Shown here: positions 1-43,417 of the stretch, piece by piece
Position numbering within the stretch: the stretch's first letter is position 1
How the letters are laid out: each line of letters opens with the position of its first letter
NCBI GenBank assembly: GCA_958009085.1
Contig: OY253690.1
Span: forward strand, 124,001-188,000
Direction: 5' to 3'
DNA: 64,000 bases
Origin: Protoeuglena noctilucae
Taxonomy: Eukaryota
Translations under genes and position numbers: made by a program
Notes under the pieces: model-generated
Database searches by the model: none
What the model was told of the DNA's origin: nothing
Seen by the model: only the letters and a program-made list of their open reading frames with translations

Positions 1-3000
1 GCGGGACGGCGACGACGATAGCACAGACGACCACGACCCTTCCCCACGCAACGCCGACGGCCGCAGCAGCTCCGGGGCCAGCAAAAGGTCCGCCGGGTCG
101 CGGTACTCCGCCCCGGGATTCGATCCGCGACCGCTCGGGGTGCCGGGGGAAACGGGGGGAGGTGCACCAGCGGGTGCGCCGGAACGTGCTGTGGCTGCAC
201 CGGAACGTGCTGTGAGCGAGTGGGGGCGCGTGGGGGTGACACGTGCTTCGGAGGATCTCAGAGAGAGACTTTGCAGATCTGTGCGATGACGATCGCGGTC
301 GTTTGCGGTGGTCCGTCGCAGCTGCATGCGCGCTGCTTGCGCTTGGGCCGCGTAGGTGAGACGTCGGTACAGAGCCATTCCCCACGGCAGTCCGATCTCT
401 TTCATCTGATTGAGGACTTGGCCGGTCAGGAGCAGGGAGATGATCTGGGTCTGTGGGGGAGGGGGAAGGGGGGGTGGGGGTTGAGTAGGTGGGGGGAGAG
501 TAACTGTGTAGTGAGGAGCAGGGAGATGATCATTGGCACCAGTCGATTATACAGTACTATTTACAGTGACCTAGTGCGCTACGCTCCACCACCAACACAG
601 CCACCCAACCCCCCGTCCCCACCCCCATCCCCCTCCCCCTCCCCAATGACCCTCTCTCGCCTGCAGCTGCGCCCAGTCCTTTCGTATGAACGCGATGTAG
701 AAGAGCGATATATTGGCGTTGAAGGTGAAGAACACGAACAGCCGCGTGGCCATGGCGTTGGTGAGGGAAGTGTCAGTGCGGTGCATCTCCCAGTCAGCAA
801 GGCGGGACGAGGCCCAGACGTACGCGGACTGCGATTGGAAATGGGTTACAAATCATGAATATATGTAATGTAATATATGATATTATAGTATTTATGATAT
901 GTTGCATCTCCCAGTCGGCAAGGCGGGACGAGGCCCAGACGTACGCGGACTGCGAGTTGTATGAAAAGAGGGATATGTTTTCAGTAAACATGTAGATATA
1001 GATATGTTATACATACAGACATATGCGATGGGACGAGGCCCAGACGTACGCCGACTGAGACGCAACAAGGTGACGGTGGACGAGATGCACCTGTACTACT
1101 ATCAGATACGAATCACATTGTCGTTATGAGTATTCTGAATCCAAAGCACATGTTCACCTGCGATACCGGGATGATAAGCCCGTTCAGCACCCCCGTCACG
1201 GTGCATGCGATGCAGCTATGCTACTGTTTCACCGATACTAATATTAAAACTACTATTGCTCAATATAAATCATATTCACCTGCGACACGGGTATGATGAG
1301 CCCGTTCAGCACCCCCGTGACCGTGGATGCGATGCGGGCGGCAGTGGCGGTGGTGACGGACCCGGGGGACCACAGAGTGGCGCCGAACAGGGAGCCGTCT
1401 CGCAAGTTGCTCTCGATCGTCTGCGTTGATTAGGGAGAGATAATGGTTAAGTGTTTGTTACTTTATCTATAAAGTTGCTCTCGATGGTCTGCGAATAGTT
1501 AGCCACGGCTGTTACCGCCGCCACTCAATCATTAACTCTGATCAAAGTACTTTAACTCAGTGTAACCACTATTCCTCGCCTGCAGCAGTATCATGATCCC
1601 CAGCGACGCGAGGCAGGACACGGCCAGCAGCGCCACGGATGCACTGGCACGCAATGTGCGCTGGAATGATGGGATGTAGTAGACGTCGCCATATGCGGCG
1701 AGGTCGGCCCTGCATGTGATAGGGGTGTGGTTATTAGTATTAATAGTGTGTTTTGTTAATATTGGCAGTCGTATACTAGTAATTAAAACGATAAACCCCA
1801 CTCCCACCAACAACCCCCCCTTCACTGGGGACTCCCCATACACACCTGATCTGCCTCTCCCTCGCCACCGCGTCCCTCCCCTTCATGTTCAGATTCAAAG
1901 CCTCGAACATCCACGCCATCACGCGGCGCTGCTTTCTGGCGTCCGCGCTGCTCAGCTGATCATCAATGCGAGCCACGAACTCTGGCCGCACCGATTGGGA
2001 GAGGGATTCCGAGGAGGGGCCCTGCTCCTGCGAGGATGGTAAGGGGGCAGGGGATATTGTTGGTATCTATAGTTTCACTGTTGATATGTATTATTGGGTT
2101 CTTGCTGTACCTCTTTCGAACATAGCAGTGGAGACGAACTGGGACCCTCATACATACCGAATAGCAATACTAACAATTATTGTTATAGTCATAATAACAA
2201 CAGTAAAAATAAACTCTTAACTCGCCTCCAGTCCGTTCTTCCATAAATATGCGTACCGCGCCTCCTGGGACCCCCACTGCGCCACCAGCCACACCGACCA
2301 CAGTGCCACGAACGCCGCAAATAATACCACCAAATACGTGTATCGGAAATCGAACCCCGATGATCCCCGCAAATCCACCACGTTCACCAGCACCGCCACC
2401 GCAAGGCCCAGCACTGTAGGGGAGGGAGTTGGGGAGTTAGTTGTTAGTAAATATGAATTGGTCATATGAATATGAATGCACTGCGGGGGTGTGTGTTAGG
2501 GGGGCTGATTGTCAGTAGTTAATATAAATGGATACCATGATATGATATGACTATACATTTACGTTTACCAGTATACTTCCATTCCACAAACAAGTACAGT
2601 ATCACTACACCCCCCCCCCCCTCCCAACACAACTATTACTCACCCGACGGCACAATGAGGCTCCTGGTTATAATAAATAATATAATTATATAATCATAAC
2701 CACAAACATCAACCCCCCAATCCACCCCTCACCCGAGGGCACGATGAGGCTACTAGCAAAACTATAACAATGCAGTAATCCTACTTAATTATCGAAAATA
2801 AGACTACAATTACTGATCGCTACTCACCCGAGGGCACGATGAGGCTCCTTGTGTAAGATTGCAGAAACGCAAAGTACAGCCCCCTCTCGTGCCCGAAATA
2901 GTCCATGACCTTCTGCAGAGGCTGACTTAACCATAAGTGGGGCTTGCACCAGAACCACGGGTCGTGGGTCCATGGGAAGGCCCATTCGCGGTTTAACTCG

Positions 3001-6000
3001 CTCAGTCCGGTGGGCTGAAGGGTGCGCACAACGTCCTTGGCCAGGCGGCCGGCCACCAGGGCTCTGAGTTACAAAAGGAGAGTCAGTGATTGCATTAAAG
3101 AATAATGGTTTTAAATTTTATCATGTGACTGTGTCTGTGTGTACCCCCAGTATTAATATGTCAGTAGCTCAATCATGCAGTGTGTCCCCTACCCCCAATC
3201 AACCCCCTCACCTCAAAAACACCTCCGCACCCCCATTCGCGTAGTCCACGCGGCCGTTGCGATCCATCGATTTCGCAGCTTTGGCCTCCAGCAGCGAATC
3301 CATGACTGCCAGCTTCTCGCTGTAACCGAAAGCGTCGTTGGGCTCCACCGACTGATACGGACCCACAAAGTACCTGGGGGGTGGGTAGAGTAGTATGTGG
3401 ATACTAGATGTAAGTATAGGGTTAGGTAAGTATAGCGAGAGGGTTTGTAACTTTTGATATCCACGATGTATAGAATATGGCTACACACATGTAAAGGACC
3501 GGTTATCGTTACTGCATCCGCGCACCACGCACAGTGCTATCCACTCTGATATGCGTTGTCGATAATAACATAATTGTATATCCTCCCACCCCATATCTCC
3601 CACACACCTCGGATACGGGTACGCCGTCCCCGCACACGCTTACCGTGCACATTGTTACATCACTAATTGTAATGTTATATGCTATATAACATTCCAACAT
3701 AACATCACAACATAACAACACATCCCTCCCATCCCCCATATCCCCCACACACCTCGGGTAAGGGTACGCCCTCCCCGGCCCGTCCACGTGGAACGCCAGC
3801 AGCGGGGCGTTTCTGACGAACTGCCCGCGCTTGAAACCGGCGGCGAAGGCCCCCTTGCGGGGATCGGGCCTTATCAGCGTGTGAAACCCCATCTTCTCTG
3901 CGTATAAGCCCAGTCTGTGTAATGGGCATCCGATGAACATCACGCGGCGGTGGAGGTGCGATAGGGGGACGCCGGCGAATGCCAAGAGGGGCTCGGGGAT
4001 GACTGGAGATCTGTGAAAGGGGAAGGGGTGGGGGGAGTTAGTGAATGGGTGAGAGGGGTAAGTGAGGGTGAGTGGGGTGGGGTGGGTGGGGTGAGAATGA
4101 GGGAGTATAAGTGAGTGGAGTGAGTATGGGCATCAGTTGGTGCTAAACCCATGCACACTACTAATGCAAATCCTACATTACATACTATTGATATACACCA
4201 TCCACCCACTCTCACCTCCTCTGCATGACCTGATCGGCGAACTCCCTCATCTCCCCCAAAACGGCGTCAAACGCACGCTCAAACTTCTCCACCACCGTGT
4301 AACCCATACCCACTCCGTAGGGCGAGTGGCGAGTGTCGTCATCGTTATCGTCGTTATCGCCATTATCATCGTTATTATAGCCCCTATCGCGACCTCGCTC
4401 CTTGCTGTTACCGCCCGCATTGCCACCCCCACCCGCACCCGCACCCTCATTGCCACCCGCCCCCGCACTTGCACTCCCACTGGCAGTTTCGCCGGCATCC
4501 CCGCCCGCATTGGCCGGCGCGACGCGGGGGTGGGGGCGGCGGCGGAGCTGCGGTGGTCAGCAAGGGGCGGGCAAGGTTAGTGCAGTCATCGCGTGAGAGA
4601 ATATTAATCGATGAATAAAATTGATCCAAATCTTGATGTCGGTATCGTTGGATTGATCGAATGTGATGAAAGACATAAACATGTACCAACATCGCCCCTC
4701 GCCTTGATCCCCCACCCCTCCTCCTGGGAGGCCTGCGCCTGCCGGGGCGCCAGTGCCTGAAACGGGGAACAAGGAATGGTAATATTATATTACGACTGCG
4801 ATCCCAGGGCGCTCAGCAGTCAGCGAACCTCAACAACCGTTTTTATAATATCATATATCATATAAAACATATACATTCGACTACACTCGCCTTGCTGACG
4901 GCCTCCCGCGCCCTCGCATCCATCATCGGCCTCTCCACCCTCTCCACCGCCACCATCCCCGCCCTCTGCAGCGAGTGCTTTAACGCGGCACGGGCGTGGG
5001 TGAGCAGACCGTAGCCCAGGAAGCACAGCCAGTCGTCGAGGATGAGAGCTTGGGAGGGAAGAAGGAGACGGGATAATAATTATAGTACTAATAGTGATAA
5101 TGATAACACAGCACGGGCGTGGGTCATCATCCCATTGCCCAGGAAACACAGCCAGTCGTCCAATATTAGAGCTGGGGGTGGGGGGAGGGAGGGGAGAACT
5201 GTAATAATCAGATAATATCGCGGATGGTCCAGCACCTCCGCTGCTGCGCGAGTGGAGAGAGCAATAGTGCTATTTGGTTGGTTTAAGTAAATAAGTAATA
5301 AATCAATAAATCAACACTGACCTGGTTTGATCCCGAACCCCCACGCCTCCCTCCTGACCTCCTTGTCGTCATAATCACCCATCTATCATAGTAGTATACA
5401 TATATACATACATACACAACCCACCTGGTTTGATCCCGAACCCCAACGCCTCCCTCCGCACTTCCTTGTCATCGTAGCCACACCCATCTTACATAGAAAT
5501 AAACGCATATCCATGTACCCAACCCAACACTGCTCACCTGGCTTGATCCCGAACCCCCATGCTTCTCTTCTGACCTCCTTGTCGTCATAAAACTCCTTCA
5601 CCGTGGCCAAATCCCCGTGAAGCACGTGGACCAGATGGGAGAGGCGGCTGGCGTACGCCTGGGGAGGTGGGTTAATGCTCGTTATCATTACAATCATAAT
5701 CAACAGTTAAAGTCCTCACCCTCGCTGTTTCTGTTATTATCACCTCATACTCCATCCACATCTCAAATGCAAATCATAGACTTACATAGTACTAGTAACA
5801 TAGTATAAGTAACACAGATGGCATTGGTGCTATAAGCATAACCACTCGCCTTGTTCTGCATCGGCAGCGCCGTTATCGTCGCCACGCACACCCCCCCTCC
5901 CTCGTCACCCCCCTCCCCCCCCTTAATCGCTCGTTTCTCGATCTCGCTGCATGGCGCTGGTATGTGCAATACCACCAACATGTCCGATGGCTCATTGGGG

Positions 6001-9000
6001 TCTCCCGTGTCGCTCGTGTACCCCATCCCGTTGCCCACCAGGCGCTCGCTGAACTCGTGCTCCAGCGTGCGCATCTGCGATTGGTATTACCTCCAAATCT
6101 GTACATGTATGGATCAATATGCAATATACAACTGTTGGTATCTCTACTACTTAACTCAACCTTCCCATCCAACACAACACCCCCGCTTACCACCCCATCA
6201 TCTTCCCGTATGTTCTCTATAAGTCACAATTACCATTAATAACACCCTCACAACAACACTCAATTATACGTTATACTTAAAGTCACTCGCCTTGTACGGG
6301 TCCCCCCCCCTCTTGATCTCCCCGTCCCCCCACCCCATCGCTGGCAATGTCGTCTCCATTACCACATCTGGATTGGTATCGGTCGAAAAAAGACGAGACG
6401 AATGCATAGAGTCGGTGTCGGGTGCATGGCTGGGGTGGCGGGCGGAGTGGGGGTGGCGGCGGGGGTGGGCTGGGGGTGGGGGAGGGAGAGTGCGGGGTGA
6501 GGAATGGTGGAGTGGGTATACATGCAAAGTATACTGGTTTGTATGTCAATCTGTTTATTTGTACTTATGTACACACATGTATAATTGTATAATGATACAA
6601 ATAGTGTTTGTGACACTAGTAATACAAATATATGTAAGACAGTCTCGCCTTGCTTGGTCCTCCTCTCCTCGATGCGGATGCGGACCAGCAGCACGATGTC
6701 CTCCTCGGCTATCTGAGAATGGATAGAGTGACATAGAATTTGAATAGGGAATAAAGCGTGAATGGATGACAGTAATTAGTTTATTGTAAAGTAGTTTATT
6801 GTAAACATGGCAAGTACGCTACACCACCCCATAATAAGCAACAACATACGCCCCCCCGCTCATCCGATTCAAACTCACCAGCCCCCCGTGCCCCTCCTCA
6901 AACAGCGGCAGGTTGAGCCAGGCCGGGTGTGTTTCGTAATCCATCACCGTCGCACGCACACGCAACAACCTCCCCGTATCCTCCGGACCACTCGCGCTCC
7001 CCGCGTGATCCACAGCTCCCTTCTTATGACTAGTAGTAGTATTGCCAGTTTTCGTCCCTTTGTTGCCGGCCCTGGGCTTGGCCCCGCCCAGCCCCCACGC
7101 CCCGACCGCCCCCCTCCGCTCCCCCGCTCCCCGCCCCACCGCCCCCGGCCCCAGCCACTCCGCCGGGAGCTTCTCCGGCGCTTCGTGCGCCAGCCACGCC
7201 ATCTCGCGCTCAATTGCGTGCGCCGCCGCGTTCAGCAGCTGTGGCACGCATCCGGGCCGCAGGTCCCAGGCGGCCCGGCGGGGGGGCGTGGGGTCGCGGG
7301 TTCGAACCCCGCCCGCGTCTCCCGGCGCCTTTGCGCCCCCCACGTCCCCCGGGACGTTGCGGGAGGCGAGGTTGGCCTCGTATCGCAACGCCTGCAGACG
7401 GGCGAAGTAGTCCAACAACACGCGCCGGTCCTTGAAGTAGCGGGGACTGAGGGAATGAAAGGGGAATCAATGTTAAAATAATGGTGAGAGAGGGGTGAGT
7501 GGGTGCATAGTATGCGTGCATGCATGCACGCTTTGATTGTGCAGTGAGCAATCGCCTGTATGACGGCTGACAATAACTAGTGAAATCAAACAAACATGCA
7601 AAGATGCGCATTAGTCACTTATTATTGCAATGATATGACTTCCTCTCTCACCTGTAGGGCCCCCACGGCTCGTCCCCCATCGCCGCCCCCCCACCCTCGC
7701 CCCCGCCCGCATCGGCATCCGATCCGCCGTCGTCATCCTCATAGAGCCGACTGACTGCGGGAAGAGGGAGAATGGAAGTATGTGTAAACAACAGCTCGCA
7801 CATCACCATCGACACTTACTCGTCGTGACGTCGATCGCCGTGCACACCGCCACCGGTACCCACACATCACCATCTACGCCCACACATCACCCTCTATAGT
7901 ATACTACCGTATATCACCCATAACTCACGTCTCCTCGCTCTCGACAGGTCCGCCCTGTCCGGATCGGTCACAAGCGGCGTGACGTCGATCGCCGTGCACA
8001 CCGCCAGCCCCGTCGGCTGCGGGGGCAGCACCTCTGCCAGAAACGACTTGGCCGGGTCTTTCCGTCTGTCTGACATGCGGGGGCTCAGGAAGTGAGCGGC
8101 GGAGGTGAGCCAGGTACGGGTGGTGCGAGTGGCTGCGGCGGTGGTGGTGGTGGTGGTGGCGGTGTTGGATCGCCAGGCTTTGTCGAAGCCACGGGGGAGG
8201 CTGGGGGTGGAAGGGGGAGAGGGGAGCTGGTGTTGTGAATGCATCACATTAGTCATATGTGCATGCTAGGTACTGGAACTACTAATTGTTGGTAGTTCCA
8301 AGCAACACCATCGACATGCTCAAGGGAACGCGTAGGGCATGCTATATATTAGTAACTATCATTAATACCAAACTTCTCACCGGTACGCGTAGAGCATGCT
8401 GTACACTTTGGCGAAGGCGATGCTCAGCGCCACGCGTGCGCAGGTGAGGGGGCGGGCCAGGCCCCTGGGGGGGGAGGGAAGGGGAGAGGGAGTGAGCGAG
8501 TAAGAGGGCAATGAAGTGAGTGAGGGAATGAGTGAGTGAGTGAGTGACAGAAACTTACACAGAGAATTAGTGTAAGTCGTGAGTAACGCTGTCCCCTCAT
8601 CACCTGACGGTGCCGGGCGCGTCTGATAGCTAGTAACTATGATAACAATCTAAACCGGTAACTAGTTAACGATCATTACATATGCTCTGATCATCATAAT
8701 TCGCCCATTGTCACCTGACCGTGCCGGGCGCGTCGTCTGGGAACATCCCCATCAAGCACGCCAGGCGAGCCATCTCCCTGTGAATAAGAGTCAGGGAGTG
8801 AGTGAGAGTAAGAGATAAAAGAGCGAGAGAGAGGAGAGAGGCAGGCGAGAGCGAATGCACCCCTGTTACCCCTCACTGCTACCACCACCCCACACACCTC
8901 ACTGCTACATCACCACCCCACCCCACCCCTCACTCGCACCACCAACCCCATTCAAATCACCCCCCAGCCTCACCACCCCACCCTCACCTGGGGCTCCTCG

Positions 9001-10515
9001 GCACCGGGATCGTATCGGGATGCGGCCTTGTTCGAAAATACACCGTGTAAGGATATGTCGACACCCTCGCAGCACGAATCTCCTCACCCACCCTCCCACC
9101 CACGCCCAGGCCCACGCCACTCACCCCACCCACGCCCACACCACCCATGCCGCCCACGCTTGCACCCACCCCCGCCCCCGCCTGTCCCGCCGCACCGGCA
9201 CCCGACCCCCCCATCCGATACAGCACGATTTGCACTTGGAATATGACACGTGGATTGGAAGTCTTGTTGCGTTGGGATCCCCTGTGTAGGACCAGCTCTA
9301 GCAATGCCTGGGTGTCGAGGTCGAGCTCGTTGTCAGTACCCGAGTCCCCTGTGCCGTAGGGGGTGTGGCTGCGGGCGAAGGGGTGGGATGGGGTCAGAGT
9401 TATTCAAGTGGGTGAAAGAGATGTGCGCGATGGGATACCATGCAGTCTGTGCCGTACGGGGTGTGGCTGCGGATGGGGGGTGGGGGGGTTGCAAGTGGTA
9501 ATCAGGAGACGGTGGCATTGAGTGAGCGATGCGTGCATCCTGCTTACTGTACCACTGTGATTAACTCACCGCACGAGGTCCGCCACCAAAGGATCTGCCG
9601 TGACGTCGACCTCTGCCGTGACCATGCACTGCTGCCCCATAGACACCAAATCGTCGTCCGTCAGCTCGCCCAGGCGGTCGCCCAGCAAGAGGCAGTCCAT
9701 GGACGTGCGCTGGGGGGAGAAAAGGGGGAGAGGGTAAGGGTTCGAGTCTTGCCCTGTATGTCACTCTTGCGGACCATCACACTCCCACCGCCCTCCCATC
9801 CCCAGGCAACCACCCCACCCCATGCAGCAACCACCCCACCCTACCCATCCATCCTCGCCTGTATGTCCTTCAACCGCCTCTCGAGCAGCCCATGGGCGTC
9901 GCTCCGAATCTTGACCAGCTCAGGGTCGTGGGCCGACCCCACGCCGCGCCTCCGCATCCGCTCGGCTGCCCGGTGCAGCGCGCCGTACCACTGCCCCGCC
10001 ATCTCCCGCTGCAGGCTCCGCGGCACGAGCTTGGGGAGCTGTCCCTCGAACCACGCCCTCTCCATCTCACATCGCGCGTCACGCCAGGCCTGCTGGATAC
10101 GGCGACGCACGCCGTCCGCGGAGGGACGCGGCGAGACCCCGCGGACGCACGAGTCCTCGGAAGCCAGGACGTCGAGGCCGAACCGGAAGATGTGAGGGAT
10201 GTGGCCGTCCTTGATCCTCACCACGCGCGTGCCGCTGCAGGAGCTTGGGGAGGAGATTCACGCGCGCAGGAGTTGTGCAGTCGCGGCGCGACGGCATACT
10301 ACCGCGCTCCTCCGCCACTCATATCCGAGCGCGGGACCAATCGCATCGCGACGCGAGCAAACAGCGTCGCTTCATGCGCAGGTCGAAGCACACGACCTCT
10401 CGCATCGCGACGCGAGGTCGGAGAGTCACCGCGTGAGGCGCCGGAACTGCGTATGATTCCTCACGCACCCGCGGTGGGAGCTGCTGCTGCTCCCGTCGTC
10501 CTGGGGCTTCGTCAT
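1..10515 (-). CDS. Anoctamin/TMEM16-like (Ca2+-activated channel/scramblase) multi-exon gene with a long N-terminal region; 3' end lies beyond the window
   Basis: Spliced exons encode anoctamin-type motifs: SQPLQKVMDYFGHERGLYFAFLQSYT (~2850-2930), WEMHRTDTSLTNAMATRLFVFFTFNANISLFYIAF (~685-795) and TQIISLLLTGQVLNQMKEIGLPW (~380-450), plus hydrophobic TM exons. Upstream exons (3200-10500) are on the same strand and linked by splice sites. The start at 10515 (MTKPQDDG) and the single-gene interpretation are tentative. Confidence 0.8.
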
Positions 10516-18837: not shown

Positions 18838-19273
18838 TGTACGGGACCAGCAGCGACTCGGCAGGCGCACCGGGCGCGGCGGATCGCCGTGATGCGGATG
18901 CAGGGCCCTGGGCGTCAGGCGCGGACTGGCGCAGGTGTGCCGGAGCCGCGGCTCGTTGCTGCAGTCGCGGAGGGTGGCCGTGCTGGTGACAATTGCGTAC
19001 TAGAGGTCCTGAAGTGTGTACAAAGGCGCTGCGCACGCTGAAGTCGGCGTCGGCGGGGCTAAGCATTGACGCTGCTGGTGCTTCGGGAGCCGGAGGGGCT
19101 GAGCGGACCCGATCGGGGCCGACGACCACGCGGTAGGTGAGGTGGAAGTGCGTTTAGTGCGCGGCGTTGCAAATGTGTCGAGTAGCTAGATGCACCAGCC
19201 CCCGGGCATAGAGCACGGTAAATGATGTGTCGCGTTCGACGCAGTGAGGGGTCGGGAGGGCCTTTCGGTGGCC
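18838..19273 (+). repeat. Upstream non-coding segment shared by F-box-ANK copies A and C (inverted homologue at ~58743-59172)
   Basis: The stretch cagcgactcggcaggcgca...atgcagggcc.tgggcgtcaggcg.ggactggcgcaggtgtgcc.gagccgcggctcgt...ggaggggctgagcggacccgatcggggccgac matches the reverse complement of the 58743-59172 region. Confidence 0.85.
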
Positions 19274-20905
19274 ATGTCGGCGACTGTGAGTGCGAAGACG
19301 TCGTCGGAGGGGGCGAGCGTTGGTGAGGCATGCGCAGGAGGGCTGCACCCCTTCGTTGGAGAGCGCAACCTTGCAGCGACATTTGGCGCGTCCCGCTGGC
19401 GCGCGCAGGGTGGGGCGACCTGACCGGGGAACTGCATCGCGAGATCCTGCGGCTGGTGCCCCTGCGCGACGCCACGGCGGCGCGGGGGGTGTCACCGCAG
19501 ATGCGCGACGAGGTGGACGAGGCGTGGAGGGCGTGGGGCATCCGGGCCACGGCGGAGGACAAGCGGGAGGACATCCGCGGACGCTTTCGTAATCACCCAT
19601 CTTTCGCGGAGCTCGACTTCAGTCCGCTGATGGTCTACGCGTTCCAGGGGTCCCACGTGCACCACCTGGCGAGCCTGGGGCTGTGGCGGCTGGCCCTGCT
19701 GGTGGCGATGGGGGCGGATGTGAACCGACGACTGAAGAGATCGTGGCCGGCGATGTCGTACTGCGCGGGGCGGGGGTGCGTGGAGGCGGTCAAGGCGTGC
19801 CTGGCGGTGGGGGCAGAGGTGGACGCGCCTGACAACGATGATTTTGGCTGGTGGACGGCGCTGGTGCATGCCGCATGGGGGGGGTCACGAGGCGGTGGTG
19901 GAGGCGCTGCTGGAGGCGGGGGCGTCGGCCCCGGTGTGGTTTTATGGCCAGGATCAAACGTTGGCAGCGGTGTGCGAGGGTCATCCGACGGCGGGCATCG
20001 TGCGGCGGCTGGTGGACGCGGGGGCGGACGTCGAATCTCGTTGTTACGGTCGTCCTGCCCTCTGCAATGCCGCGCGTCTCGGCAACGTGGCCGTGATGGT
20101 GGCCCTGGTGGACTTGGGGGTTGACGTGGCTGCGACTGATTTAATGGGGTGGACCGCGATGCACTGGGCAGCAAACGGAGAGGTTATGGGGTGGCTGGCG
20201 GCGCGGGGGTTGAGCGTCCATGGCAATAGTGGGGAGGACTCTCCGCTCCACTGCGCTTGCCGTCATGGCCGCCTTAACGCCGTACGCGCCCTGATCGAGC
20301 TTGGTGTGGACTTTAATCACAAGGACGGAGATGGTAAAACGCCTCTCCATCATGCGGTGTGCTTCCATAAAGAGCCAGAGGCCATGGAGATGACGCTGGT
20401 GCTGCTGGCGGCGGGGGCGGACATCAACGCTGTTGATGGGCGCGGCAGCACACCCCTGCACTGCGTCGGGCACGCTACGTGCGCGGACGTGCTGGTGGAC
20501 ACCGGGGCGGACCTGGAGGCGCGGGACCGGCAGCGCCAGACGCCTCTTTATCACGCGTTGTGCTTATATCCGGAACAAGAGGCCGTGGAGTTAACGCGGG
20601 CTTTGCTGGCGGCGGGGGCGGACATCAACGCTGTTGATGGGCGCGGCAGCACACCCCTGCACTGCGTCGGGCACGCTATGTGTGCGGACGTGCTGGTAGA
20701 GGCGGGGGCGGACCTGGAGGTACGAGACACAGAGGGCAAGACGGCCATCTATGCAGCCGCAACTTCCACGCGCAACAGGTCCGAGGTCGTGCTGCGACTG
20801 GCTGACCGTGGCGCAGATCTGGTCAACACGGGCGGGGAGCCGGGGCTTTTGATGCGCAAGGTAGAAGAGCTCCGGGCCGAGCGCAGCCCCAACCATGCCG
20901 ACTGA
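19274..20905 (+). CDS. F-box-like + ankyrin repeat protein, copy A (one apparent +1 frameshift at the G-run ~19877-19884)
   Basis: Exon 1 is 19274-19322 (MSATVSAKTSSEGASVG), intron 19323-19408, then WGDLTGELHREILRLVPLRDATAARGVS (F-box pattern) and many GAD...TPLH ankyrin repeats. The frame switch sits at T-G8-T, where copy C has a G7 run and reads ..GGHEA in frame. Confidence 0.8.
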
Positions 20906-23212: not shown

Positions 23213-26200
23213 ATGGGGGACTCCAGGTCCCGCTCCCGCTCCCGCGACCGCTACGGCCGGTCGGATAGCAGGTGCGAGTGTATATCGTGCCGCGACGGCG
23301 CGAAGCCATCGCATCGGGTGCCGCGGCGCCGCTCACGGTCCTCAACCGGCGCTGTGGGCGTCGAAGCCCGCCCCGGCGCTTTTGAGCCACCTCCCGCCCG
23401 CGCGAGCGCCGCGTCGTCATCATAATCACCCACTGCGTCTTTTGCAGGGACCGCCGCGAGCGTCGCGACGAGGACGCGTCGCGCCATCGCGACCGGGACC
23501 GCCGCGACCGCGACCGCGATGGTCGTCGCGACCGGGAGGCGGAGAGGGGCCGGGATAGGGACAGGGACGCGCATCGTGGCCGCGACTATCTTTGGGAGAG
23601 AGACGACCGCGAGAGAGATCGCCGGTCGGACCGGGAGAGGGAGCGGGAGCGGGAGCGGGAGAGGGATCGCCGCCCCATCGGCCGCGACCCGGGGTCTGCG
23701 AGAGCCGAGGGCGGGGCGGGGACGAAGGCCGCTTTGCCGGAACGGCGGGGTGACGAGGGCCGGCGAGGGGCGGACTCGGGGGGTCCGTTGCCCCATGGCA
23801 GGTGAGGCGGGTGGGTGGGTGTTGGGCTGTGAGCAAAGCATTGTGGGTGCAGGAGCGAGGTGTCGTTTCGTGTGGCGTGGTTAAAGGCTCTATATCCCTG
23901 CGATGCGTGCAGGGGCAACGGTGCTGCTGGGAGGGAGGGGTCGCGAGACCGGGGCGGGGAGGCGGGGACGGCAGGGGCGGTGGAGAGCGAGAACGGGGAG
24001 GGGCGCAAGGAGCCCATTTCTCTGGAGGAGCTGCTGAAGGTGAGCTGGGGTGATTGGGGTGATGTGATGAGAGTTGCTGTCATTGGGGTGATGGGAGCTG
24101 CTGAAGGAGAGAAGTGGTGATGGTTGGGTAGCATGAAGTGGTTCCGGCATGGAATAGGTCGACAGGTAGTACCTGCTTTGTACGCTGGTACAAAGCAGTG
24201 CATCTGCTGAGTTTGCCTAATTCACTCACCCCTCACCTCCCCTTTCATTCCTTCCCTCTCACCCCTCCCATCACATCCCTCATCCCTCTTATCCCCCTCA
24301 CCTCCCCTTCACCTCATCGCAGCGGAAGCAGGAGGAGGCAGTCGCGGCGGCCCGGCCGGTGTTTCTGACGAAGCAGCAGCGCCAGGAACAGGCGTTGCGG
24401 GCGCTGGAGGAGAGGCGGAGGGCCCGGGAGACGGAGCTGGAGGCCATGCGGTGAGGAATAAGTATGGATGGGGAGCGATTGGTACTAATTGTGTGTGTAT
24501 GAAAGGGTGTCGGTGCGGTGGGGGACAGGAGATGGAGCTGGAGGCCATGCGGTGAGGCACTGTGCATGGGGAGCATGGGGAGAGATGGGAAGAGAGGGTG
24601 GCGATGCGGTGAGGGATTAAAGGGGAACTGCCACCATGCAGTGTTGGCATGGTCGTCCTCATGTCACTCGCAGCCACCAGCACGCGTCGGTGCTAGATGC
24701 ACTCTTGTCCTGCACTATAACTGGTACTGCCAATTCTAGTAAGATTATGACAACTGATGTCCTATTATCCACTCGCAGCCACCCGCACGTGTCGGTGCTG
24801 GACGCCGAGATGCACAATCCCTTGTACTTCACAAGCATTGATAGCAAGACTAACATGTCCATTATTTGATATCTTTGCCTGCAGCCACCAGCACGCGTCG
24901 GTGCTGGACGCCGAGTTGCAGGAGGCCCGTCAGCGCGAGGCGCGTCTTCAGGAGGCCCAGGCATTGAGGGACCCCAGGGAGAGGGAGAAGCTACTGCAGA
25001 ACATACGGAGGACGTACCTGGGGGGAGGGCCGGTCAAGAAACGCAAGGCGAGTGATAAGCATGGGTGGTGAAATATGATGAATGATGCGGGTGTGATGGT
25101 GTGTAACAAAGGGGAGGGCCTGTCAAGAAACGCGAGTGCTATGAGGGGGGTGTTATGGGTGATGAGGGTAGGTTGGTATCTTGTACCTGGGGGGGATGGC
25201 CGGCCGAGAAACGGAAGGCGAGTGTAGATGGGGATGTGTTGTGAGAGGGTGGTGAGGGTGTGTTGGTAGTGAGGGTGTAGGCGCAAAGCTGTATGTGACT
25301 CCAACTCCACTCCCCTCATCCATGGCCCTCATCTTCACTCCTCCCTCTGCAGGTCACGGCGGGCCCCGAGCGCGACCGATTCAAATTCGAATGGGGAGCG
25401 GAGGAGGACACTCTCCGCGAGGCCAATCCTTTGTTGTCGCACGCCATAAACGGCGTGGGTGACGCTCCGCTGTTGTTCGGTCGCGGGACGAGGGGTGGGG
25501 TGGACCGGGAGCTGCAGATGAGGGAGAACGTGGCGAAATCAGCGGAGGCGAGTGGTGGATGAGAATGTATACGGTGATAGTAGTTATAGTAAATATAGTA
25601 ATATAGTGATAGTAATACAGTGATAGTGACCGGGAGCTGCAGATGAGTCAATGAGTGGTGATGGTGGATGCAGTGACGGTAATAGTTATAGTGACGGTGA
25701 CATTAAGAGAGCGTCCCTTCGTTCTCCCCAGACCCTCAAGCGTTATCGCACGGAGGAGGAGATCAAGTCATTGGCGGAGATCGGGAGCAAGGACCACTGG
25801 TGAGAGCCAATTATAGGCGATGGATAATATATAGATGATTTATACATATACACATATATACATATGGTGAGGGTGGGGGAGATCAAGACGCTGGCGGAGA
25901 TCGGGAGCAAGGACCACTGGTGAGAGGTGGATGTAATTTATGTATCGCGATGTCATTACGGGTATCGGTATTTTCGTCGTCATCTTCATCCTCACATCAT
26001 TTCGACAATTTAACATGATATTAATATTATTATAATAGTTTTTTGATAAAATGATAATATTATGATAAAATATATTATGGGTATTTGTGGTGTTGCAGGG
26101 ACAAGCGCGAGAAGGGCAGCCTGGCCAAGATCAAGCATTGGTCGGAGAAGAAACTCGAGGACATGGACCAGAGGGACTGGAGGATCTTCTTCGAGGACTT

Positions 26201-29200
26201 CTCCATCTCGTACAAGGCGAGTGTCATGTGCTATGGATTGACTGTTTGCTTTCAGTCATGCCACCCAACCCCTTGGCACTCCACTCTCCACCACACCCCA
26301 CCCAGCCCACCCAACACCCCACGCCCTCACACCCCCCCACACCCTCACCCTCACCCCACACATCCCCCCACACCTTCCCCCCCCCCAGGGCTCCCACGCC
26401 GACAAGCCCCTGCGTTTCTGGCACGAGATGCGCGTGCCCAAGGCAGTCCTCAAAGCCATCGACCGATTGGGCTGGAAGGACCCCTCCCCCATCCAGCGCG
26501 CCGCCATACCCCTCGGCCTATCCATGCGCGACGTGATCGGTATTGCCGAAACGGGTTCTGGCAAGACGTGCGCGTTCGTGGTCCCCATGATTGCGTTCAT
26601 CGCCAAGCTGCCCAAGATGACCGACGAGGTCGCGGCCAATGGGCCGTACGCCATCATCATGGCGCCGACGCGGTGAGGGATGATTGGTGGTGGGTGATGG
26701 TTGTATTTATAAGTGAGAATGGGTGGTGGGGTGGTGATGAGTGGTGTGGGTGAGGGTGACGGTGATGAGTCAGGGTGGGTGATGGATGGCAGTCACCCTA
26801 ACTGCTAAACAGTGAGCTGGCCCATCAGTTGTGATAGGCTCTCTTAGTATAAGCTAATCATAACTTCCCCCCTCTATCTCCCCCTCAGTAAGCTGGCCCA
26901 GCAGATATCAAATATAGATAGTGAGTAGCCTCTACTTAAATTACCCAATCCTCTGTTCTTCCCAGTGAGCTGGCCCAGCAGATTGAGGAGGAGACGCGCA
27001 AGCTGATGCACTACTCCGAGTACCGATGTCTGTCGGTGGTGGGGGGGGAGTCCCTGGACGTGCAGGCGTCCGCGCTGAGGAGGGGGGCGGGTGAGCGGTG
27101 ATGTCAAAGACCACAGCATTGAGATGGCACAACACGTGTCTGTGTGGGTGTGTAGGTGTGTGTGCGTGTGGGTGGGTGAGTGTGTGGGTGTGTGTGTGCG
27201 TGTGGGTGGGTTAGTGTGTGTGTTTGGGTGGGTGGGTGGTGATTGGCAGATGGGCAGGCGTCCGCGCTGAGGAGGGGGGCAGGTGAGCGGTGGGTGGGTG
27301 TTGGTGGGTGCAGGTGGTGGGTCACAGACTGTAAAATGCAGGGATTTGCGCAGTGCTAAAAAGCGTAGACACCTCTCCTAGTATCGTCTTACCAATTACC
27401 ATCTACTTAAATCCCATCCGCAGAGGTGGTGATTGCCACGCCCGGCCGCGTGTGTGACCACATCGAGCGGCAGTACCTGGTGCTGAGTCAGTGCAACTAC
27501 ATTGTGCTGGATGAGGCGGATCGGATGATCGACCTGGGATTGGAGCTGCAGGCGAGATGATGGGGTGGGGTGGTGCGGGCGGGTAGGGATGGTGTGGAGT
27601 GGTGAGGGGTGATGTGGTGCAGGTGAGGTGAGCTAAAACAGTCTATGTTGTTTTTGTCACTATTGCTAATAGTAAGATTCTTTGTGCGCCCCTGAGGCAA
27701 TCGCAGGTCAACCAGGTGATGGACGCGATGCCCAAGGGAAAGCTGAAGCCCGAGGCAGAAAATGCCGAGCTGGACCCCACGGCCATCTACCGCATCACCT
27801 ACATGTTCAGGTGAGATTGACAATAGAGCATGTGCCAAGTCACCTACATGTTCAGGTGAGATGATGGGATGTTTAGATGGGGTGGACGGGGCATCTGCCG
27901 AAGAGTACGCTTGACTTGCACCCACAACGACGGATAAAAACACTTACTTCCGCACCCGGAGACACACACCCACACCCACACCCACACCCACACCTACACC
28001 CACCCATACACACTGTCTGCTCTCTCCCCTCAGTGCCACGATGCCCCCCACGGTGGAGCGCATCGCCAAGAAGTACATGCAAACACACACATACACATCA
28101 CAAAAGAAAGATATAGATACACCAACTCTCTCTCTTTTCCTGTTCTTTCAGTGCCACGATGCCCCCCACCGTGGAGCGCATCGCGAAAAAGTACATGCGC
28201 AATCCGGTGGTGGTGACGATCGGGGTTGCGGGCGACGCAGGGGCCAACATCACGCAGCGCATCGTCATGGTCAGCCCAAGCGAGAAGGACCCCACGCTGT
28301 TCCGGTGAGTGAAGCATAGAGTATGGTAAATGTTTTATCATCTGTGTTCGTGAGAGGGACGTTACGCTGCGCCAGTGAGAATGGTGCTTACTATGCGGTC
28401 GCAAGATACGACATTGTACTCAACACGTTGCAACTCGACCATTTCCCCTCATCGCCCCCTTTGCATCCTTGTCCTCTTCCTTAGGTTCCTGCGAGAGCTT
28501 CTTGCAGACACGGCAGACAACAACTAGGTCCTTGTCATTGTTATTGTCGTTGTGTGTAATAGTAATTAGTAACTATACTTGTGCATCTCCTCTCCCCCAG
28601 GTTCCTGCAAGAGTTCTGGAACACGGCGGACGACAAGAAGGTCATTGTGTTTGCCAACACCAAGGCCACCTGCGACATCGTGCAGAGGTCGCTCGAGAGG
28701 CAGGGATACTCGGTGTCGGTGCTGCACTCGGGGAAGGCGAGTGGGGTTATGGCAATATCAATGGTGATAATGTCATTGTTAATGATGTTATATTATCACT
28801 GTGATTGTCAATACCTATAAGATGGCGCTCGAGAGGCAGGAGTACTCGGTGTCCGTGCTGCACTCGGGCAAGGCGAGTGGTTATATATGATCGATGTCAG
28901 TGTTATTATATGTCATTGTATGTCAATATGAATACCCATCTCATAATATGGCGTGGGAGAGGCAGGGGTACTCGGTGCCGGTGCTGCACTCGGGGAAGGC
29001 GAGTGGTAAGTGTTCGCGGCAATGCCTGTGTGTGTAATTGGCAATGCCCACCACCCTCTGCCTTGTGTCTCGTGTCACCCCATCCCACTCCCTGCCTCTG
29101 GTCAGCATCCATGTCCCACTCTCTGTTCCCCACCACCCCTATGCAGACCCAGGAGGCCCGCGAGCACGCCATCCGCTCCTTCCGGGAGGGCGCCAACAAC

Positions 29201-30292
29201 GTGCTATTGGCCACGGACATCGCCGGGCGGGGCATCGACGTGCCGGACGTGTCGCTGGTCGTCAACTACGAGATGCCGCAGAAGGTGAGGGGGAATCGAT
29301 AAACAGTTATCTGATAATAATGGATGATGCCGCAGAAGGTGAGGGTGGATGAGATGCTGGTGATGGACTCGCAATTGAGTAGGAGAAGCCGCAGAAATTG
29401 GCAGTGTGGCGGCAGTCATACACGCGCCCCGTGGTGCCATTGCCAGCACCCTGACGGGACTTCCCCAATGCCCTGCCATGCATTAAGTGATTGCGTGCTG
29501 CCGTCACCATGCACCCCACGCCCCTCTGCCCCCCCATGCCCCTCCCCCACCCTGCGTACTCTTGACTGCCTGCCGCCGTCAGGCACCCCACGCCCCTCTG
29601 CTCACCCCCTCTGCCCACCCCAACCACCCCACGCCCCTCTGCCAACCCCAAGCATCCCACGCCCCTCTGCCAACTCCAAGCACCCCACGCTCCTCTGCTC
29701 ACCCCACCCCGTGCGCAGATCGAGCCATACACACACCGCATCGGGCGCACGGGACGCGCGGGCAAGAAGGGGACGGCCGTGTCCCTGGTCACTGCGGGGG
29801 ACTCTGTCATCTTCTACGACCTCAAGAAGCTGCTGGAGGTGAGGGGTAGCATGCATGGTGTGAGGTCATCTAATGTGACCTGAGGAGGCTGCTGGAGGGG
29901 TGAGGGGGCGTGAAGGAGCATGCATGGTGCGAGGGCTGTGGTGCTTGGGTAGTGGCTGCGACCTCGTGAGAGGCGCAGGGTGGGTGGGTGGAGGTGCAGG
30001 GTAGGGTGGGTGCGGGCATGCAGTGCGTGTGTTGTGCGCGATGCATTGTGCAGCAACATGCAGCTCTCCGCACTCCCCCGCACACATGCGCTGAGCGGGA
30101 CCTGGCATGGTCGACCTGTGCTCGTTTTTAAATGTGGCACAAGTACTGCGCCCCTGGATATCGAGGGGTGTGTGTTGTCGTGATCGGCTTGCATACCTGT
30201 GCTGTCCATGTGCACCGCAGAAGGCCAAGCAGCACATCCTACCCGAGCTCGCACGCCACGAGGCGGCACAGAGGCCAGGCGGGGGCATGTGA
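23213..30292 (+). CDS. PRP28: DEAD-box RNA helicase PRP28/DDX23 (U5-100K), ~17 exons
   Basis: RS/RD-rich N-terminus, [92 protein letters not shown] and [13 protein letters not shown]. Confidence 0.95.
29511..29705 (+). repeat. Intronic minisatellite, ~5 copies of CACCCCACGCCCCTCTGC with variable spacers
   Basis: Copies at ~29512, 29584, 29625, 29653 and 29681 inside a PRP28 intron. Confidence 0.8.
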
Positions 30293-30718
30293 GGGGCGCG
30301 GGAGTGAGGGCCAGAGAGGGCCATGCGGAGAAGCACACGAGGCCCAGGCAGCGATGCGCAGAGCGCACGTGCCGATGGCATGCCGCATGGAGCCGGAGAC
30401 AGCGCCGGGAGAGCCCGCGGGGCTCGCGAGGAGCGTGGGCAAGGACCGACCGAGGAGCACGGGGGAGAGGAGCTATGCACAATGCTGCGGCAGGTGCCCC
30501 TCCGGGTGTCATGTAGGATGCACGACGAAATGTAGAAAGCGCAGCCACGCAACGACACGGCTCCGCGGGCCGGCTAGGGCGGTGCTGGCTGTGGGGCGGC
30601 CTTGTGACATCGCTCCTCGTCCGTAGCGCTCCATGTCGATGGCTGAGTCGCGTGTGAAGTGCATGTGTACCTCGGCGGTCTTCTGGGCTGACCCGTGCGG
30701 AGCATCGGCGCAAGCATT

Positions 30719-31093
30719 GGCGCAGCCAGCCACAGCACGCAAGCCGGGGTCTCCCCTGCCAGGCTGGCAGGTGGGCTTCGACGGTGGGGCCCGAGACCGG
30801 CGCAGGGCACTTCGCGCCAACAGCCGAGCAAGTGCGAGAGTGAGGTGCGAGCCGCGAGCGTGCGATCGGACAGGGAAGCGCTGGTTAGAACTCACATCAG
30901 CCAGCCTGCGGTCCGGTGGGCGTCTGCGCCGCGTGCGAGGCCGGTCTCTGCTGCAGGTGAGGGGAGAGGTGGTTGCGGAGAAGGACACTGCGGGCGTCGG
31001 GGCTTCAGGCGCGGCGCCTGCGGGTGCTGAAAGGACCGTGCACTCGGGCAGGGTGGACGGCGCGCGGGGCCCGTGTCCGCCGGTCGGCGTGCG
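30719..31093 (+). repeat. Upstream non-coding segment shared by F-box-ANK copies B and D (inverted homologue at ~61263-61657)
   Basis: The stretch ggcgcagccagccacagcacgcaagc...ccctgccaggctggcagg.gggcttcgacggtgggg...gggcacttcgcgccaacagccgagca matches the reverse complement of 61520-61657. Confidence 0.85.
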
Positions 31094-32612
31094 ATGGCGG
31101 GCGGACGTAAGGCTAAGCGGTCGTCGGCGACCAAGAGCGCGGCTCCGCAAGTCGGTGAGGCGCGCAGAGGAAGGGCTTTGCTTGTTTGAGCAGCGGTTGC
31201 CTCGTTGCAGCATCCGGCCAAGTCTGTTGGCTCGCGCAGGGTGGGGCGACCTGCCCGGGGAGCTGCATCGCGAGATCCTGCGGCTGGTGCCCCTGTGCGA
31301 CGCCACGGCGGCGCGGGGGGTGTCGCGGGAGATGCGCGACGAGGTGGACGATGTGTGGGGGGCGTGGGGCATCCGGGCCACGGTGGAGGACGAGCGGCGT
31401 AAACTTCGCCAGGCCCTTGATCAAGATCCGTTTGAGGTCGGCTTCGGTCCGCTGCTGGTGTTGGCGTTCGAGGGATCCCACGCGCACCACCTGGCGAGCC
31501 TGGGGCTGTGGTGGCTGGCCCTGCTGGTGGCGGAGGGGCCGGACATTAACGGTATCTCATGGCAGAAGTTTGAGGGGTATCCGAGCCAGTCCCCGCTTAT
31601 GGTGGCGGTGCGGGCGTGGCGGCCGGTGGGGCGCGGGGCGGATGGGAAGGTGGAGTGGGCGTATGCGCTGGGGGACGAGGAGGTGGCGCGGGCGGTGCGG
31701 GCGGCGGTGGCGATGGGGGCGGACGTCAATCGGCGGCTTTTCCAAGCCTGGCCGCTGATGACGTATTGTGCGTGGAGGGGGTGCGCAGAGGCGGTCAAGG
31801 CGTGCCTGGCAGCGGGGGCGGAGGTGGACGCGCCTGGTGGCGATATCGATGGCTGGGAGACGGCGCTGGTGCACGCGGGACGGGAAGGTCACGAGGCGGT
31901 GGTGGAGGCGCTGCTGGAGGCCGGGGCGTCGGCCGAGGTTGGGGAAGATGACGAGGATGAGACGTTGCCAGCGGTGTGTGACGGTCATCCGACGCCGGGC
32001 ATCGTGCGGCGGCTGGTGGAAGCGGGGGCGGACGTCAACGCTCGTTGTTACGGTCATCCGGCCCTCAATAATGCCGCAAAGTTTGGCAATATGGCGGTGA
32101 TGGAGGCGCTGGTGGAGCTTGGAGCCGACGTGGATGGCACCGACGTACTGGGGCGGACTGCGATGCACTGGGCAGCGAGTGGGGAGGTGGTGCGGTGGCT
32201 GGTGGCGCTGGGGTTGAGCGTCCAGGGCGATGGGGGCTACGAGTCCCCACTTTACAGGGCTTGCTACGATGGTCGGGTCGATGCCGTCCGCACCCTGATC
32301 GAGCTGGGTGCGGACGTCGACGTCAACTGCCCGAGCATGCATGGCAGTGCTCCCATTAATGTTGCGGTGGGCTTCGCAACGAAGCAAGTTGCCGTGGAGA
32401 TGACGCGGCTGCTGCTGGCGGCGGGGGCTGACGCCAACGCTGCTGATAAGCACGGATACGCGCCCCTCGATAACGCCACCCACAAGGCATGCAGGGCCCT
32501 GCTGATTGACGCTGGGGCGCGCCCGAGGACGAGGGGCCAAGACATCGACAGTGACGTGTCGATCCCTAGCTACGGATCGTCCTTCAGCGAGGGCCCCTGG
32601 GGGTGGTTCTAG
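31094..32612 (+). CDS. F-box-like + ankyrin repeat protein, copy B (apparently intact)
   Basis: Exon 1 is 31094-31154 (MAGGRKAKRSSATKSAAPQVG), intron 31155-31239, and exon 2 is open to TAG 32612. It carries the F-box motif WGDLPGELHREILRLVPL and ankyrin repeats. Confidence 0.85.
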
Positions 32613-42300: not shown

Positions 42301-43417
42301 ATGGCGCCGTTCCCTGCCAAGGTCGCGGTGGTCGGCTCCGGCAACGTGGGCCTGACCCTGGCCAAGGGCTTCAGGCAGCACGGTAAGCAAGACATGTGGC
42401 ATGCACATCGATCTGCGTGCCGTGCTCCCCCGGCCGCTGGGCCCCGCGCAACCTCCAACTGCCTTGCTGCAAACGCAGGGGCCGCAGTGTTCGTCGGGAC
42501 GAGGAACCCGGGTAAGTGGCACCGTGCGATCATTCCGTGTCACAAACAGATGCCGATGCGATAGGGGAGGACTCGGATACTCTTGCGATAGCGGAGAAAT
42601 CGGACATTGCAAGCGCTAGCGTAATACCCCCGCGCACATGGCGACGCAATAACGAATATCCCCGCGCACATGGCGACGCGTGCACGCAACTAGCCACGGC
42701 GCCGTGCCATCCCAGAGAAGCTCGGCGAGTTTGCGTCCAAGCACCCGGACATCACCATCGGGGCCCCCGCGGACGCCTGCGCGTTCGGCGATGTGGTCGT
42801 TTTGGCCGTCCCCGGCCACGCGGCCAAGAGCGTAGCTCAGGACGTGAGGACGCAACTGCAGGGCAAGATCGTTATGGACACCAACAACCCGATTAGCGGC
42901 GTGGGTCCGGGCGGCGTGTTCAAGTGAGTTTCCCCGTTCTCGATTCTCGCTTTCCACTCCCCAAAGCACAGCTGCATCCGCAATGTATCCCTGCGCCTCC
43001 ATCCCTTGCCATTCTCGCATTCCATTGCCCAAATGCAGCAGCACCCGCAGTGTGTATCCCTGCGCCCCCATCCCCCTCCGCAGCTACTTCACGGATCGCA
43101 ACAGCAGCCTGCTGGAGATCCTGCAAGCGGAGGTGCCGGGCGCGCGCTGGGTCAAGGCGTTCAACAGCGTGGGCGCGGAGATGATGGTCAACCCTGCCCT
43201 CCCGGGCGGGCCCCCGACGATGTTCATTTGCGGCGACGACACCGAAGCCAAAGCCGTCATCGCGGCCATCTGCGTGGCGTTCGGGTGGGACCCTCTTGAC
43301 ATGGGCGTGGCTGCGGCTGCTCGCGCCATCGAGCCTCTCTGCCAGCTCTGGTGCATCCCCGCAATGACCAAGGGCGAGCGGACCTGGGGGGCGTTCAAAT
43401 TCCTCAAGTCGGCGTAA
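42301..43417 (+). CDS. NADPH-dependent F420 reductase-like / COG2085 dinucleotide-binding oxidoreductase
   Basis: Exons 42301-42382, 42479-42511, 42716-42923 and 43084-43417. Motifs KVAVVGSGNVG (Rossmann), DVVVLAVP, GKIVMDTNNP, VKAFNSV, ICGDDTEAK and GWDPLDMG...ARAIEPL. Confidence 0.9.

Follow-up and report, generated by a model that had tools for sequence, protein, structure and literature searches.

How does an intron come to hold repeated versions of the end of its own upstream exon which differ from that end almost exclusively at silent positions? The question is raised by a short array on the minus strand of a 64,000-nucleotide (nt) stretch of Protoeuglena noctilucae DNA (contig OY253690.1 of assembly GCA_958009085.1, positions 124,001 to 188,000; hereafter the window, to which all coordinates refer). 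According to sequence reading and translation, a peptide of 17 codons, YDDKEVRREAWGFGIKP, followed by G|GT, is present there three times: once as the working end of a real exon (exon E), and twice within the following intron, in copies which we call echo 2 and echo 3. The repeat lies far above chance, and so does the bias towards synonymous differences among its copies. The array was very probably formed by local tandem duplication of a splice-junction module; as for the cause of the silent-only divergence, three explanations are still live. The array comprises the following features.

5538..5658, minus strand: exon E, the real exon with the echoed 3' end (121 nt; acceptor ccccag|GCG, donor CCAG|GTGAGC; from sequence reading and translation)
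5539..5589 (read 5589..5539), minus strand: functional copy of the 17 codons YDDKEVRREAWGFGIKP, followed by G|GTGAGC, with the donor GT at 5536-5537
5488..5537, minus strand: spacer 1 (50 nt, GC content 0.42), beginning at the real donor and ending in ...CTATGTAAG; homologous to spacer 2
5425..5487, minus strand: echo 2 module (63 nt), consisting of ATGGGTGTGGC, the 17 codons (with W>L) and G, with a donor-like GT at 5423-5424
5426..5476, minus strand: the 17 codons of echo 2, followed by G|GTGGGT
5383..5424, minus strand: spacer 2 (42 nt, GC content 0.31), ending in ...CTATGATAG
5322..5382, minus strand: echo 3 module (61 nt), consisting of ATGGGTGAT, the 17 codons (same in protein) and G, with a donor-like GTCAGT at 5316-5321
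5323..5373, minus strand: the 17 codons of echo 3, followed by G|GTCAGT
5049..5537, minus strand: composite intron between exon E and exon F (489 nt), with two donor echoes and one acceptor echo
5104..5173, minus strand: echo comprising the acceptor and the initial 22 codons of exon F, cccccag|CTCTAATATTGGACGAC...
4891..5048, minus strand: exon F (ALILDDWLCFLGYGLL...SK), with the GC donor AAG|GCGAGT

Along the minus strand, the order is exon end, spacer 1, echo 2, spacer 2, echo 3, 148 nt, acceptor echo, 55 nt and exon F. The open frame runs on into exon E from upstream exons, and the exon ends with ...VKEF YDDKEVRREAWGFGIKP G|GTGAGC. Homology of the echoes to exon E starts about 20 codons before the donor and does not extend to a whole exon with both splice sites; upstream of it lies an AT-rich spacer ending in AG, not the acceptor region of exon E. 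Directly before both echoes stands the sequence AGATGGGTG, and the ATG of echo 3 is in frame with its 17 codons. No further copies of the array peptide were detected in the window by tblastn. The acceptor echo of exon F (5104..5173) differs from its exon by 6 synonymous and 4 non-synonymous codons among the 21 whole codons compared. The initial annotation had reported three recoded copies of the exon end, with AGATGGGTG shared by the two intronic ones; both are present, the copies lying within 1-2 nt of where it had placed them.

Such an array might be a product of assembly, in which allelic versions were stacked in tandem. The units, about 100 nt long, come close to the length of short reads, and one isolate run has some contigs cut at 5392-5426. 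Against this, an 18-kb contig of an isolate run spans 926-10000 with 0 differences, and two marine metagenomes from another study provide contigs over 2661-5660 (with 1 difference) and 5162-6427 (with none), so that the array is spanned by contigs from 3 runs of 2 studies with 0-1 differences. The isolate runs contain all sampled words of the stretch, and the marine metagenomes of the other study 0.94-0.97 of them; in the runs of two other organisms, regarded as the nearest relatives, the share is 7%. In protein collections, the open reading frame (ORF) connecting exon E with echo 2 across spacer 1 occurs on 18 contigs, unchanged on 16 and with one change on 2. This variant (P0002) carries V>L, the sole difference in 103 residues, and the change removes the G of the echo 2 GT (5423-5424). 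Because independent contigs span the array with so few differences, the probability of stacked haplotypes is practically negligible. In nature, the array thus exists and is close to fixation, and its contiguity, for which the initial annotation had asked verification, holds at the level of contigs.

As for the origin of the array, a repeat search returned 3 copies of 82 nt at spacings of 103 and 113, Tandem Repeats Finder (TRF) gave a period of 103 with 79% matches and a score of 254, and ungapped BLAST among the copies gave E = 3.6e-15, 5.7e-13 and 6.5e-07. The two spacers are also related (local alignment, P=0.004), with an identity of roughly 70% as estimated from TRF. From the spacing, the common AGATGGGTG and the homologous spacers it follows that the array is of local origin. 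The intron part is thus homologous as well, which is the mark of contiguous tandem duplication; across the window this mark is found only weakly. The 5' edges of both echoes, moreover, show the same derived features (ATGGGTGA in place of the ACGGTGA of the exon, followed by deletions), and both echoes share five codon states against the exon. From this, we infer that a single first echo was duplicated again as a unit of 103 nt.

The differences between the copies are of a peculiar kind, and the recoding claimed by the initial annotation was recovered in full. Between the functional copy and echo 2 there are 11 nt differences, which represent 9 synonymous codons (AGA>CGG among them) and W>L, the latter private to echo 2. 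The functional copy and echo 3 differ at 5 nt, each synonymous and each at a third position, and the two echoes differ from one another at 6 nt (5 synonymous, 1 non-synonymous). Echo 3 has no private change: at the 11 variable sites it shows the state of the functional copy six times and that of echo 2 five times, being the same as the exon at codons 1-7 (first base) and at codon 11, and the same as echo 2 elsewhere. Of its functional-like states, five form a single run and the sixth stands apart. The exon and the echo lineage are separated by 10 synonymous differences in 17 codons (about 15 synonymous sites) and by no shared non-synonymous one. Four of the exon-private changes are third-position G>A in four consecutive codons, AGA AGA GAA GCA (P=0.027), that is, A-ending codons amid a GC content at third codon positions (GC3) of 0.89.

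When the same number of substitutions was placed at random in 20,000 trials and the non-synonymous counts were compared, a count as low as observed never appeared for the functional copy versus echo 2 (0/20,000), and it appeared with a frequency of 5e-5 for the functional copy versus echo 3 and of 0.0025 for echo 2 versus echo 3. Under a fairer null, in which the echo is neutral and the exon takes only synonymous changes, P was 5e-5 for echo 2 and 0.005 for echo 3. Transition or CpG bias was considered as a cause and dropped: only 3 of the 11 differences in the array are CpG-related, and 15 of the 51 third-position differences across the window are G<->C.

The array is not alone. In a self-comparison of the window, 93 out of 113 local direct-repeat pairs were retained, their members lying 40-450 nt apart. 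Of the pairs situated in intron-rich genes, most represent, by sequence reading, an exon end with its donor, or an acceptor with its exon start, duplicated inside the adjacent intron; within an intron, copies of donors invariably precede those of acceptors. With such exon-derived blocks as links between AT-rich stretches of 42-55 nt, the introns reach 150-490 nt. By self-BLAST, the spacers have no match elsewhere in the window. The genes and examples concerned include the following.

24300..29900, plus strand: DEAD-box (PRP28-like) helicase gene, in which 13 introns were traced by sequence reading
1158..1333, minus strand: anoctamin-like part, exon end IASTVTGVLNGLIIPVSQ|GTGAAT (1280-1333) and its echo (1158-1211)
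784..1054, minus strand: acceptor and exon start ag|SAYVWASSRLADWEM in three copies, the functional one at 784-828 and the echoes at 905-949 and 1031-1054

Junction echoes were detected in 11 of the 13 traced helicase introns, among them a donor triplet (28686-28736, 28822-28872 and 28948-28998) and an acceptor pair (28035-28079 and 28153-28197). The minus-strand gene or genes at 600-7500 include the anoctamin-like part, with a Pfam Anoctamin match for 2820-3068. The anoctamin donor echo differs from its exon end by 6 synonymous codons and 1 non-synonymous one, and the SAYVWASSRLADWEM echoes by one synonymous difference each.

To these echoes the same reasoning was applied, taking for each of 25 functional-versus-echo comparisons only the exon-derived part, read in the frame of the gene. 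The 76 differences fall on codon positions 1, 2 and 3 as [13, 12, 51] and represent 47 synonymous and 23 non-synonymous codons. For the null, the echo was simulated as neutral and the exon as taking only synonymous changes, at equal rates and with kappa of 1 or 3, in 4000 runs; this covered the 22 comparisons with at least one difference, the three identical pairs being left out. The expected synonymous fraction was 0.34-0.40, and the observed value was reached in 0 of 4000 runs (P<2.5e-4). Leaving out the two comparisons of the array, P was 0.00025-0.00075, and in an independent subset without them 0.001-0.0045. The null of a neutral copy beside a constrained exon is therefore rejected. Ascertainment by BLAST was dropped as a source of the bias, since BLAST is blind to codon position at such divergences.

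These figures bear on the simplest alternative, namely that the echoes are neutrally decaying tandem duplicates and that the array is a lucky extreme among many of them. The array was indeed picked by the initial annotation as the clearest case, and about 29 comparisons are available in this window alone. Several echoes look neutral, and four more junction echoes outside the simulation add 5 synonymous and 6 non-synonymous codons (hand count). However, the P of 5e-5 obtained for echo 2 with the fairer null withstands a correction for about 29 tests, the excess persists when the array is taken out, and it also persists in the independent subset. In addition, exon-derived blocks about 90% identical stand beside flanks that are, by global alignment, at the level of shuffled sequence. 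We therefore give this explanation little probability.

The contrast between blocks and flanks deserves attention in its own right. Identical positions in the exon-derived blocks amount to 455/508 (donor) and 276/303 (acceptor), whereas in the adjacent 40 nt of intron beyond the splice-site consensus they amount to 289/553 and 205/392 by global alignment. An initial conclusion that the flanks are wholly unrelated had to be softened, as local alignment detected weak residual homology, 6 of the 23 comparisons, including that of the two spacers of the array, reaching P<0.05. Some blocks are 93-100% identical (0-1 differences, synonymous sites included) next to almost randomised flanks. This indicates recent copying or gene conversion confined to the block, while the residual homology of the flanks indicates that the units were duplicated long ago together with intron sequence. 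On the strength of block versus flank identity, patch-limited exchange probably keeps the blocks like the working junction. The composition of the blocks agrees with that of exons: GC3 is 0.892 in both, and GC<->AT changes are symmetric (18:18), so that the echoes are not drifting towards the AT-rich composition of their surroundings.

The same observations might be read as selection. In such a case, the echoes would be maintained by purifying selection as splice-recognition modules (pseudo-exons, or decoy 5' splice sites with exonic enhancers), while the exon drifts silently; with static echoes and an exon changing at synonymous sites, all differences would come out synonymous. Relative to the splice site, the conserved block begins at about -20..-65 and stops at about +5..+14, limits that match the footprint naturally expected of splice-site recognition. 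In both echoes the 54-nt block is free of indels, whereas a C>T change, a +G and a 7-nt deletion are found in the roughly 20 nt upstream of it. The exon-like GC3 and the symmetric changes despite AT-rich surroundings, the much stronger conservation of blocks than of flanks and the presence of echoes in 11 of 13 helicase introns also speak for selection. On the other hand, the natural variant abolishes the GT of echo 2, and many echoes carry non-synonymous changes, indels or a stop. Moreover, 10 of about 15 synonymous sites differ while the spacers are still some 70% identical, which is above expectation for drift of the exon alone. Selection on splice recognition is thus rather unlikely. Indirect selection on the echoes through echo-to-exon conversion was dropped, because by our own estimate the rate needed would also erase the synonymous differences.

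Selection could also act on protein, if the echoes were translated, either as alternative ends of the exon or as cassette exons. Taken together with its AG acceptor, echo 2 measures 63 nt and would be in frame after exon E, inserting DGCG+YDDKEVRREALGFGIKP. The in-frame ATG of echo 3 follows TAG|, and with the internal ACG|GTGAAG (about 5606) serving as donor, echo 3 could stand in for the exon end; the two echoes, too, differ mostly synonymously (5:1). Yet as a cassette echo 3 would be 61 nt long, and the frame G+AT GGG TGA stops immediately. By our own reading, 6 of 12 donor echoes are in frame as cassettes, and the bias is alike in those in frame (19:8) and out of frame (14:7). A duplicated core segment in the helicase or the anoctamin-like protein would not be tolerated, acceptor echoes are without donors, and the donor of echo 2 is lost in the natural variant. 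Translated alternative exons are accordingly improbable. The related idea that the main protein contains the echoes as translated repeats was discarded, as the frames misfit and a duplicated helicase core is implausible. As a side observation, in unspliced RNA the frame of exon E closes with TGA TAG just before the in-frame ATG of echo 3 (5380-5388), and echo 3 lies exactly 216 nt (72 codons) past the functional copy.

The reading we prefer, tentatively as a whole, combines old local tandem duplications, patch-limited gene conversion and an exon tract from a diverged allele. The duplicated module very probably consisted of the last 20 or so codons of exon E, the 5' splice site and about 45 nt of AT-rich intron, giving a tandem array of three units in 280 bp, whose most upstream unit is still the exon end. 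The other two units, together with a duplicated acceptor and exon-F start, now lie inside the 489-nt composite intron and must be skipped. The same process would have operated in many introns of the window, and the blocks would have been re-copied or gene-converted repeatedly in short patches, i.e. by concerted evolution. In the array, the working exon end would then have been overwritten by a short tract of a diverged functional allele through recombination with another lineage, while the echoes retained the earlier resident version. Later, echo 3 would have been partly re-converted by the new exon, and echo 2 would have gained its private W>L. The pointers to a foreign tract in the exon are the run of A-ending codons amid GC3 0.89 and the lack of private changes in echo 3, and the replacement itself is put forward with reserve. 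A neutral echo should by now show many changes of non-synonymous type, and an exon drifting alone should show fewer changes. The pattern of echo 3 would fit a short conversion tract from the exon.

This bears on the proposal of the initial annotation that the versions stem from sources as diverged as distant strains or species. One part of it stands: the differences have passed a coding filter, and their amount is as between well-separated lineages. The other part, namely that the copies were imported singly from outside, gives way to local tandem duplication, given their shared AGATGGGTG junction and homologous spacers. If a diverged source was involved, an overwritten working exon beside echoes keeping the resident version would fit better. 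The idea of a diverged source is thus kept in our reading and reversed, the exon possibly being imported and not the echoes.

Several observations weigh against this reading. The diverged allele was not found: a degenerate pattern (EA(W/L)GFGIKP followed by GGT) had 0 matches in genome, viral and metagenome contig collections, so the check suggested by the initial annotation, for a variant that serves as the functional exon elsewhere, found none there. Among 5.8 billion proteins, exon E had no relative save the ORF of the same locus. Metagenome contigs show 0-1 differences from the window over 1.3-3 kb, i.e. such diversity is not visible today. A runs test for a mosaic echo 3 was not significant (P=0.11). 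Finally, the window presents a mixed picture. The clean echoes (6:1 synonymous to non-synonymous for the anoctamin donor, and 3:0 twice) demand several foreign tracts or a general constraint, and other echoes are junk-like (0:3, 1:3, 1:3 and 2:3, and one with a stop and indels).

Further searches concerned relatives, transcripts and the literature. The helicase exon has 31 related loci, the best 69% identical, which is too distant for comparing echoes, and it had no match in a protein search. For a neighbouring ORF, only the CCDC90-like family was returned by an Atlas search; Pfam gave no match for the exons of the gene carrying the array, and Rfam and tRNA scans gave no match. In a metatranscriptome run, 30 contigs were placed on the stretch and none contained a splice joint. 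One of these contigs (5495-5671) is unspliced over the real donor and another (4540-4693) lies inside an intron; they do not bear on splicing and may represent pre-mRNA, retained introns or DNA carry-over. No description of junction echoes was found in the open-access literature searched, nor in the examined main-text passages of PMC3879977, PMC9481584, PMC13298755 and PMC6731263, and the passages of PMC13298755 make no mention of duplication or tandem arrangement.

Some features of the window were noted in passing. The window is eukaryotic, with GC-rich exons and short AT-rich intron stretches. GC donors occur in 5 of the 13 traced helicase introns, with the consensus AAG|GCGAGT, and this donor type is also frequent in the minus-strand gene at 4400-7500. 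ATGG marks the 5' boundary in 8 of the 17 donor echoes, five times as AGATGG (5384-5489, 24530, 24583, 27248 and 28820). On the gene strands, AGATGG occurs 13 times in 14.5 kb, five of them exactly at an echo edge and a sixth before a degenerate third copy. In several cases the working exon has ACG where the echo has the edge ATGG (CpG>TpG), and in 6-7 echoes this ATG is in frame. Long tracts of low complexity and rich in C (CCCCACC-like), some of them tandemly repeated themselves, lie before acceptors or within introns (26260-26388, 29498-29705, 34765-34877 and 53346-53469). Other tandem duplications of 54-99 nt, with about 2 copies and 77-82% matches, are located at 35111-35214, 37787-37965, 42943-43074 and 48881-49055. 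The 30 long-range repeat pairs of the window are nearly all ankyrin/F-box paralogues, the remainder being of low complexity. Four paralogous ankyrin-repeat genes (18845-20900, 30700-32450, 57400-59170 and 60380-61660) lie on both strands, one with an F-box; their DNA identity is 74-85%, and they are apparently intron-poor and GC-rich.

Junction echoes offer a concrete route for intron lengthening. They create many extra splice sites, which bears on splicing accuracy in such cells, and as internal copies they serve as a yardstick for change in the working exon. The silent excess means either that intronic DNA is selected in a codon-like manner or that foreign alleles take the place of exons, in tracts some tens of bases long; both outcomes would be relevant to intron evolution and to recombination in plankton populations. 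Echoes under selection would be intronic elements of a new class, namely pseudo-exons derived from the gene itself and required for coping with composite AT-rich introns. Frozen echoes would be dated fossils of working exons that were repeatedly overwritten by tracts from deeply diverged lineages. A still broader generalization, for now doubtful, is that these introns carry a systematic archive of their own exon borders, kept exon-like by patch exchange or selection and diverging only at silent sites.

It remains to compare the junction echoes with known systems. Tandem exon duplication was reportedly the subject of earlier work by Kondrashov and Koonin and by Letunic et al. According to passages of the review PMC9013439, it gives rise to mutually exclusive or cassette exons. 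As in the cases described there, the echoes represent exon sequence placed in tandem in the neighbouring intron, with splice sites and coding-like sequence kept. In contrast, only an exon end with its donor, or an acceptor with its exon start, is copied here, in lengths that are generally not multiples of three (for in-frame exchange of copies, echo 2 with 63 nt is in frame, echo 3 with 61 nt only via a hypothetical internal donor). The echoes, known here from DNA alone, also encode the same peptide, with no gain in protein diversity.

In the model of Rogers, as given in passages of PMC3265369 and PMC4974935, introns are gained by tandem genomic duplication of an exon segment containing AGGT. 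There, as here, a short tandem duplication is tolerated, the extra copy being spliced out and the coding sequence unchanged. In those passages, however, the new intron starts like the downstream exon and ends like the upstream one, whereas here a pre-existing junction was duplicated, and the order within the intron (exon-E end, exon-E end, exon-F start) is the opposite.

The BOC1 introns of Mamiellophyceae are short (<75 nt) and AT-rich, and the passages on them in PMC3879977 describe no copies of flanking exons, unlike the composite introns of 150-490 nt seen here, where in addition 5 of 13 helicase donors are GC. As far as those passages go, the likeness consists in GC-rich exons, many short AT-rich intron stretches and a sharp drop of GC content at the splice site.

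Introner elements were reportedly treated by Huff et al. 2016. Passages of PMC3879977 and PMC9860276 describe them as reshaping introns on a genome scale. Introners, as presented in these sources, are one sequence family in many genes, whereas here each intron holds copies of its own flanking exons. A mobile element would have its sequence recur, and no spacer recurs in the window by self-BLAST.

Concerted evolution proceeds by gene conversion between a gene and nearby pseudogene-like copies. The echoes resemble it in their short patches that are the same as the working sequence, their diverged flanks and their mosaic copies; they differ from it in being fragments of about 60 nt that lie in an intron of the very gene they derive from, with the donor sequence about 100 nt away. 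None of the compared systems fits fully. To our knowledge, partial duplications of exon borders into a neighbouring intron have so far been seen only as isolated cases. In the present 64-kb stretch from a wild marine eukaryote, they occur in 11 of the 13 introns followed in one gene, and again in the remaining intron-containing genes that were examined, which points to an undescribed way of intron growth and of sequence exchange between introns and exons.

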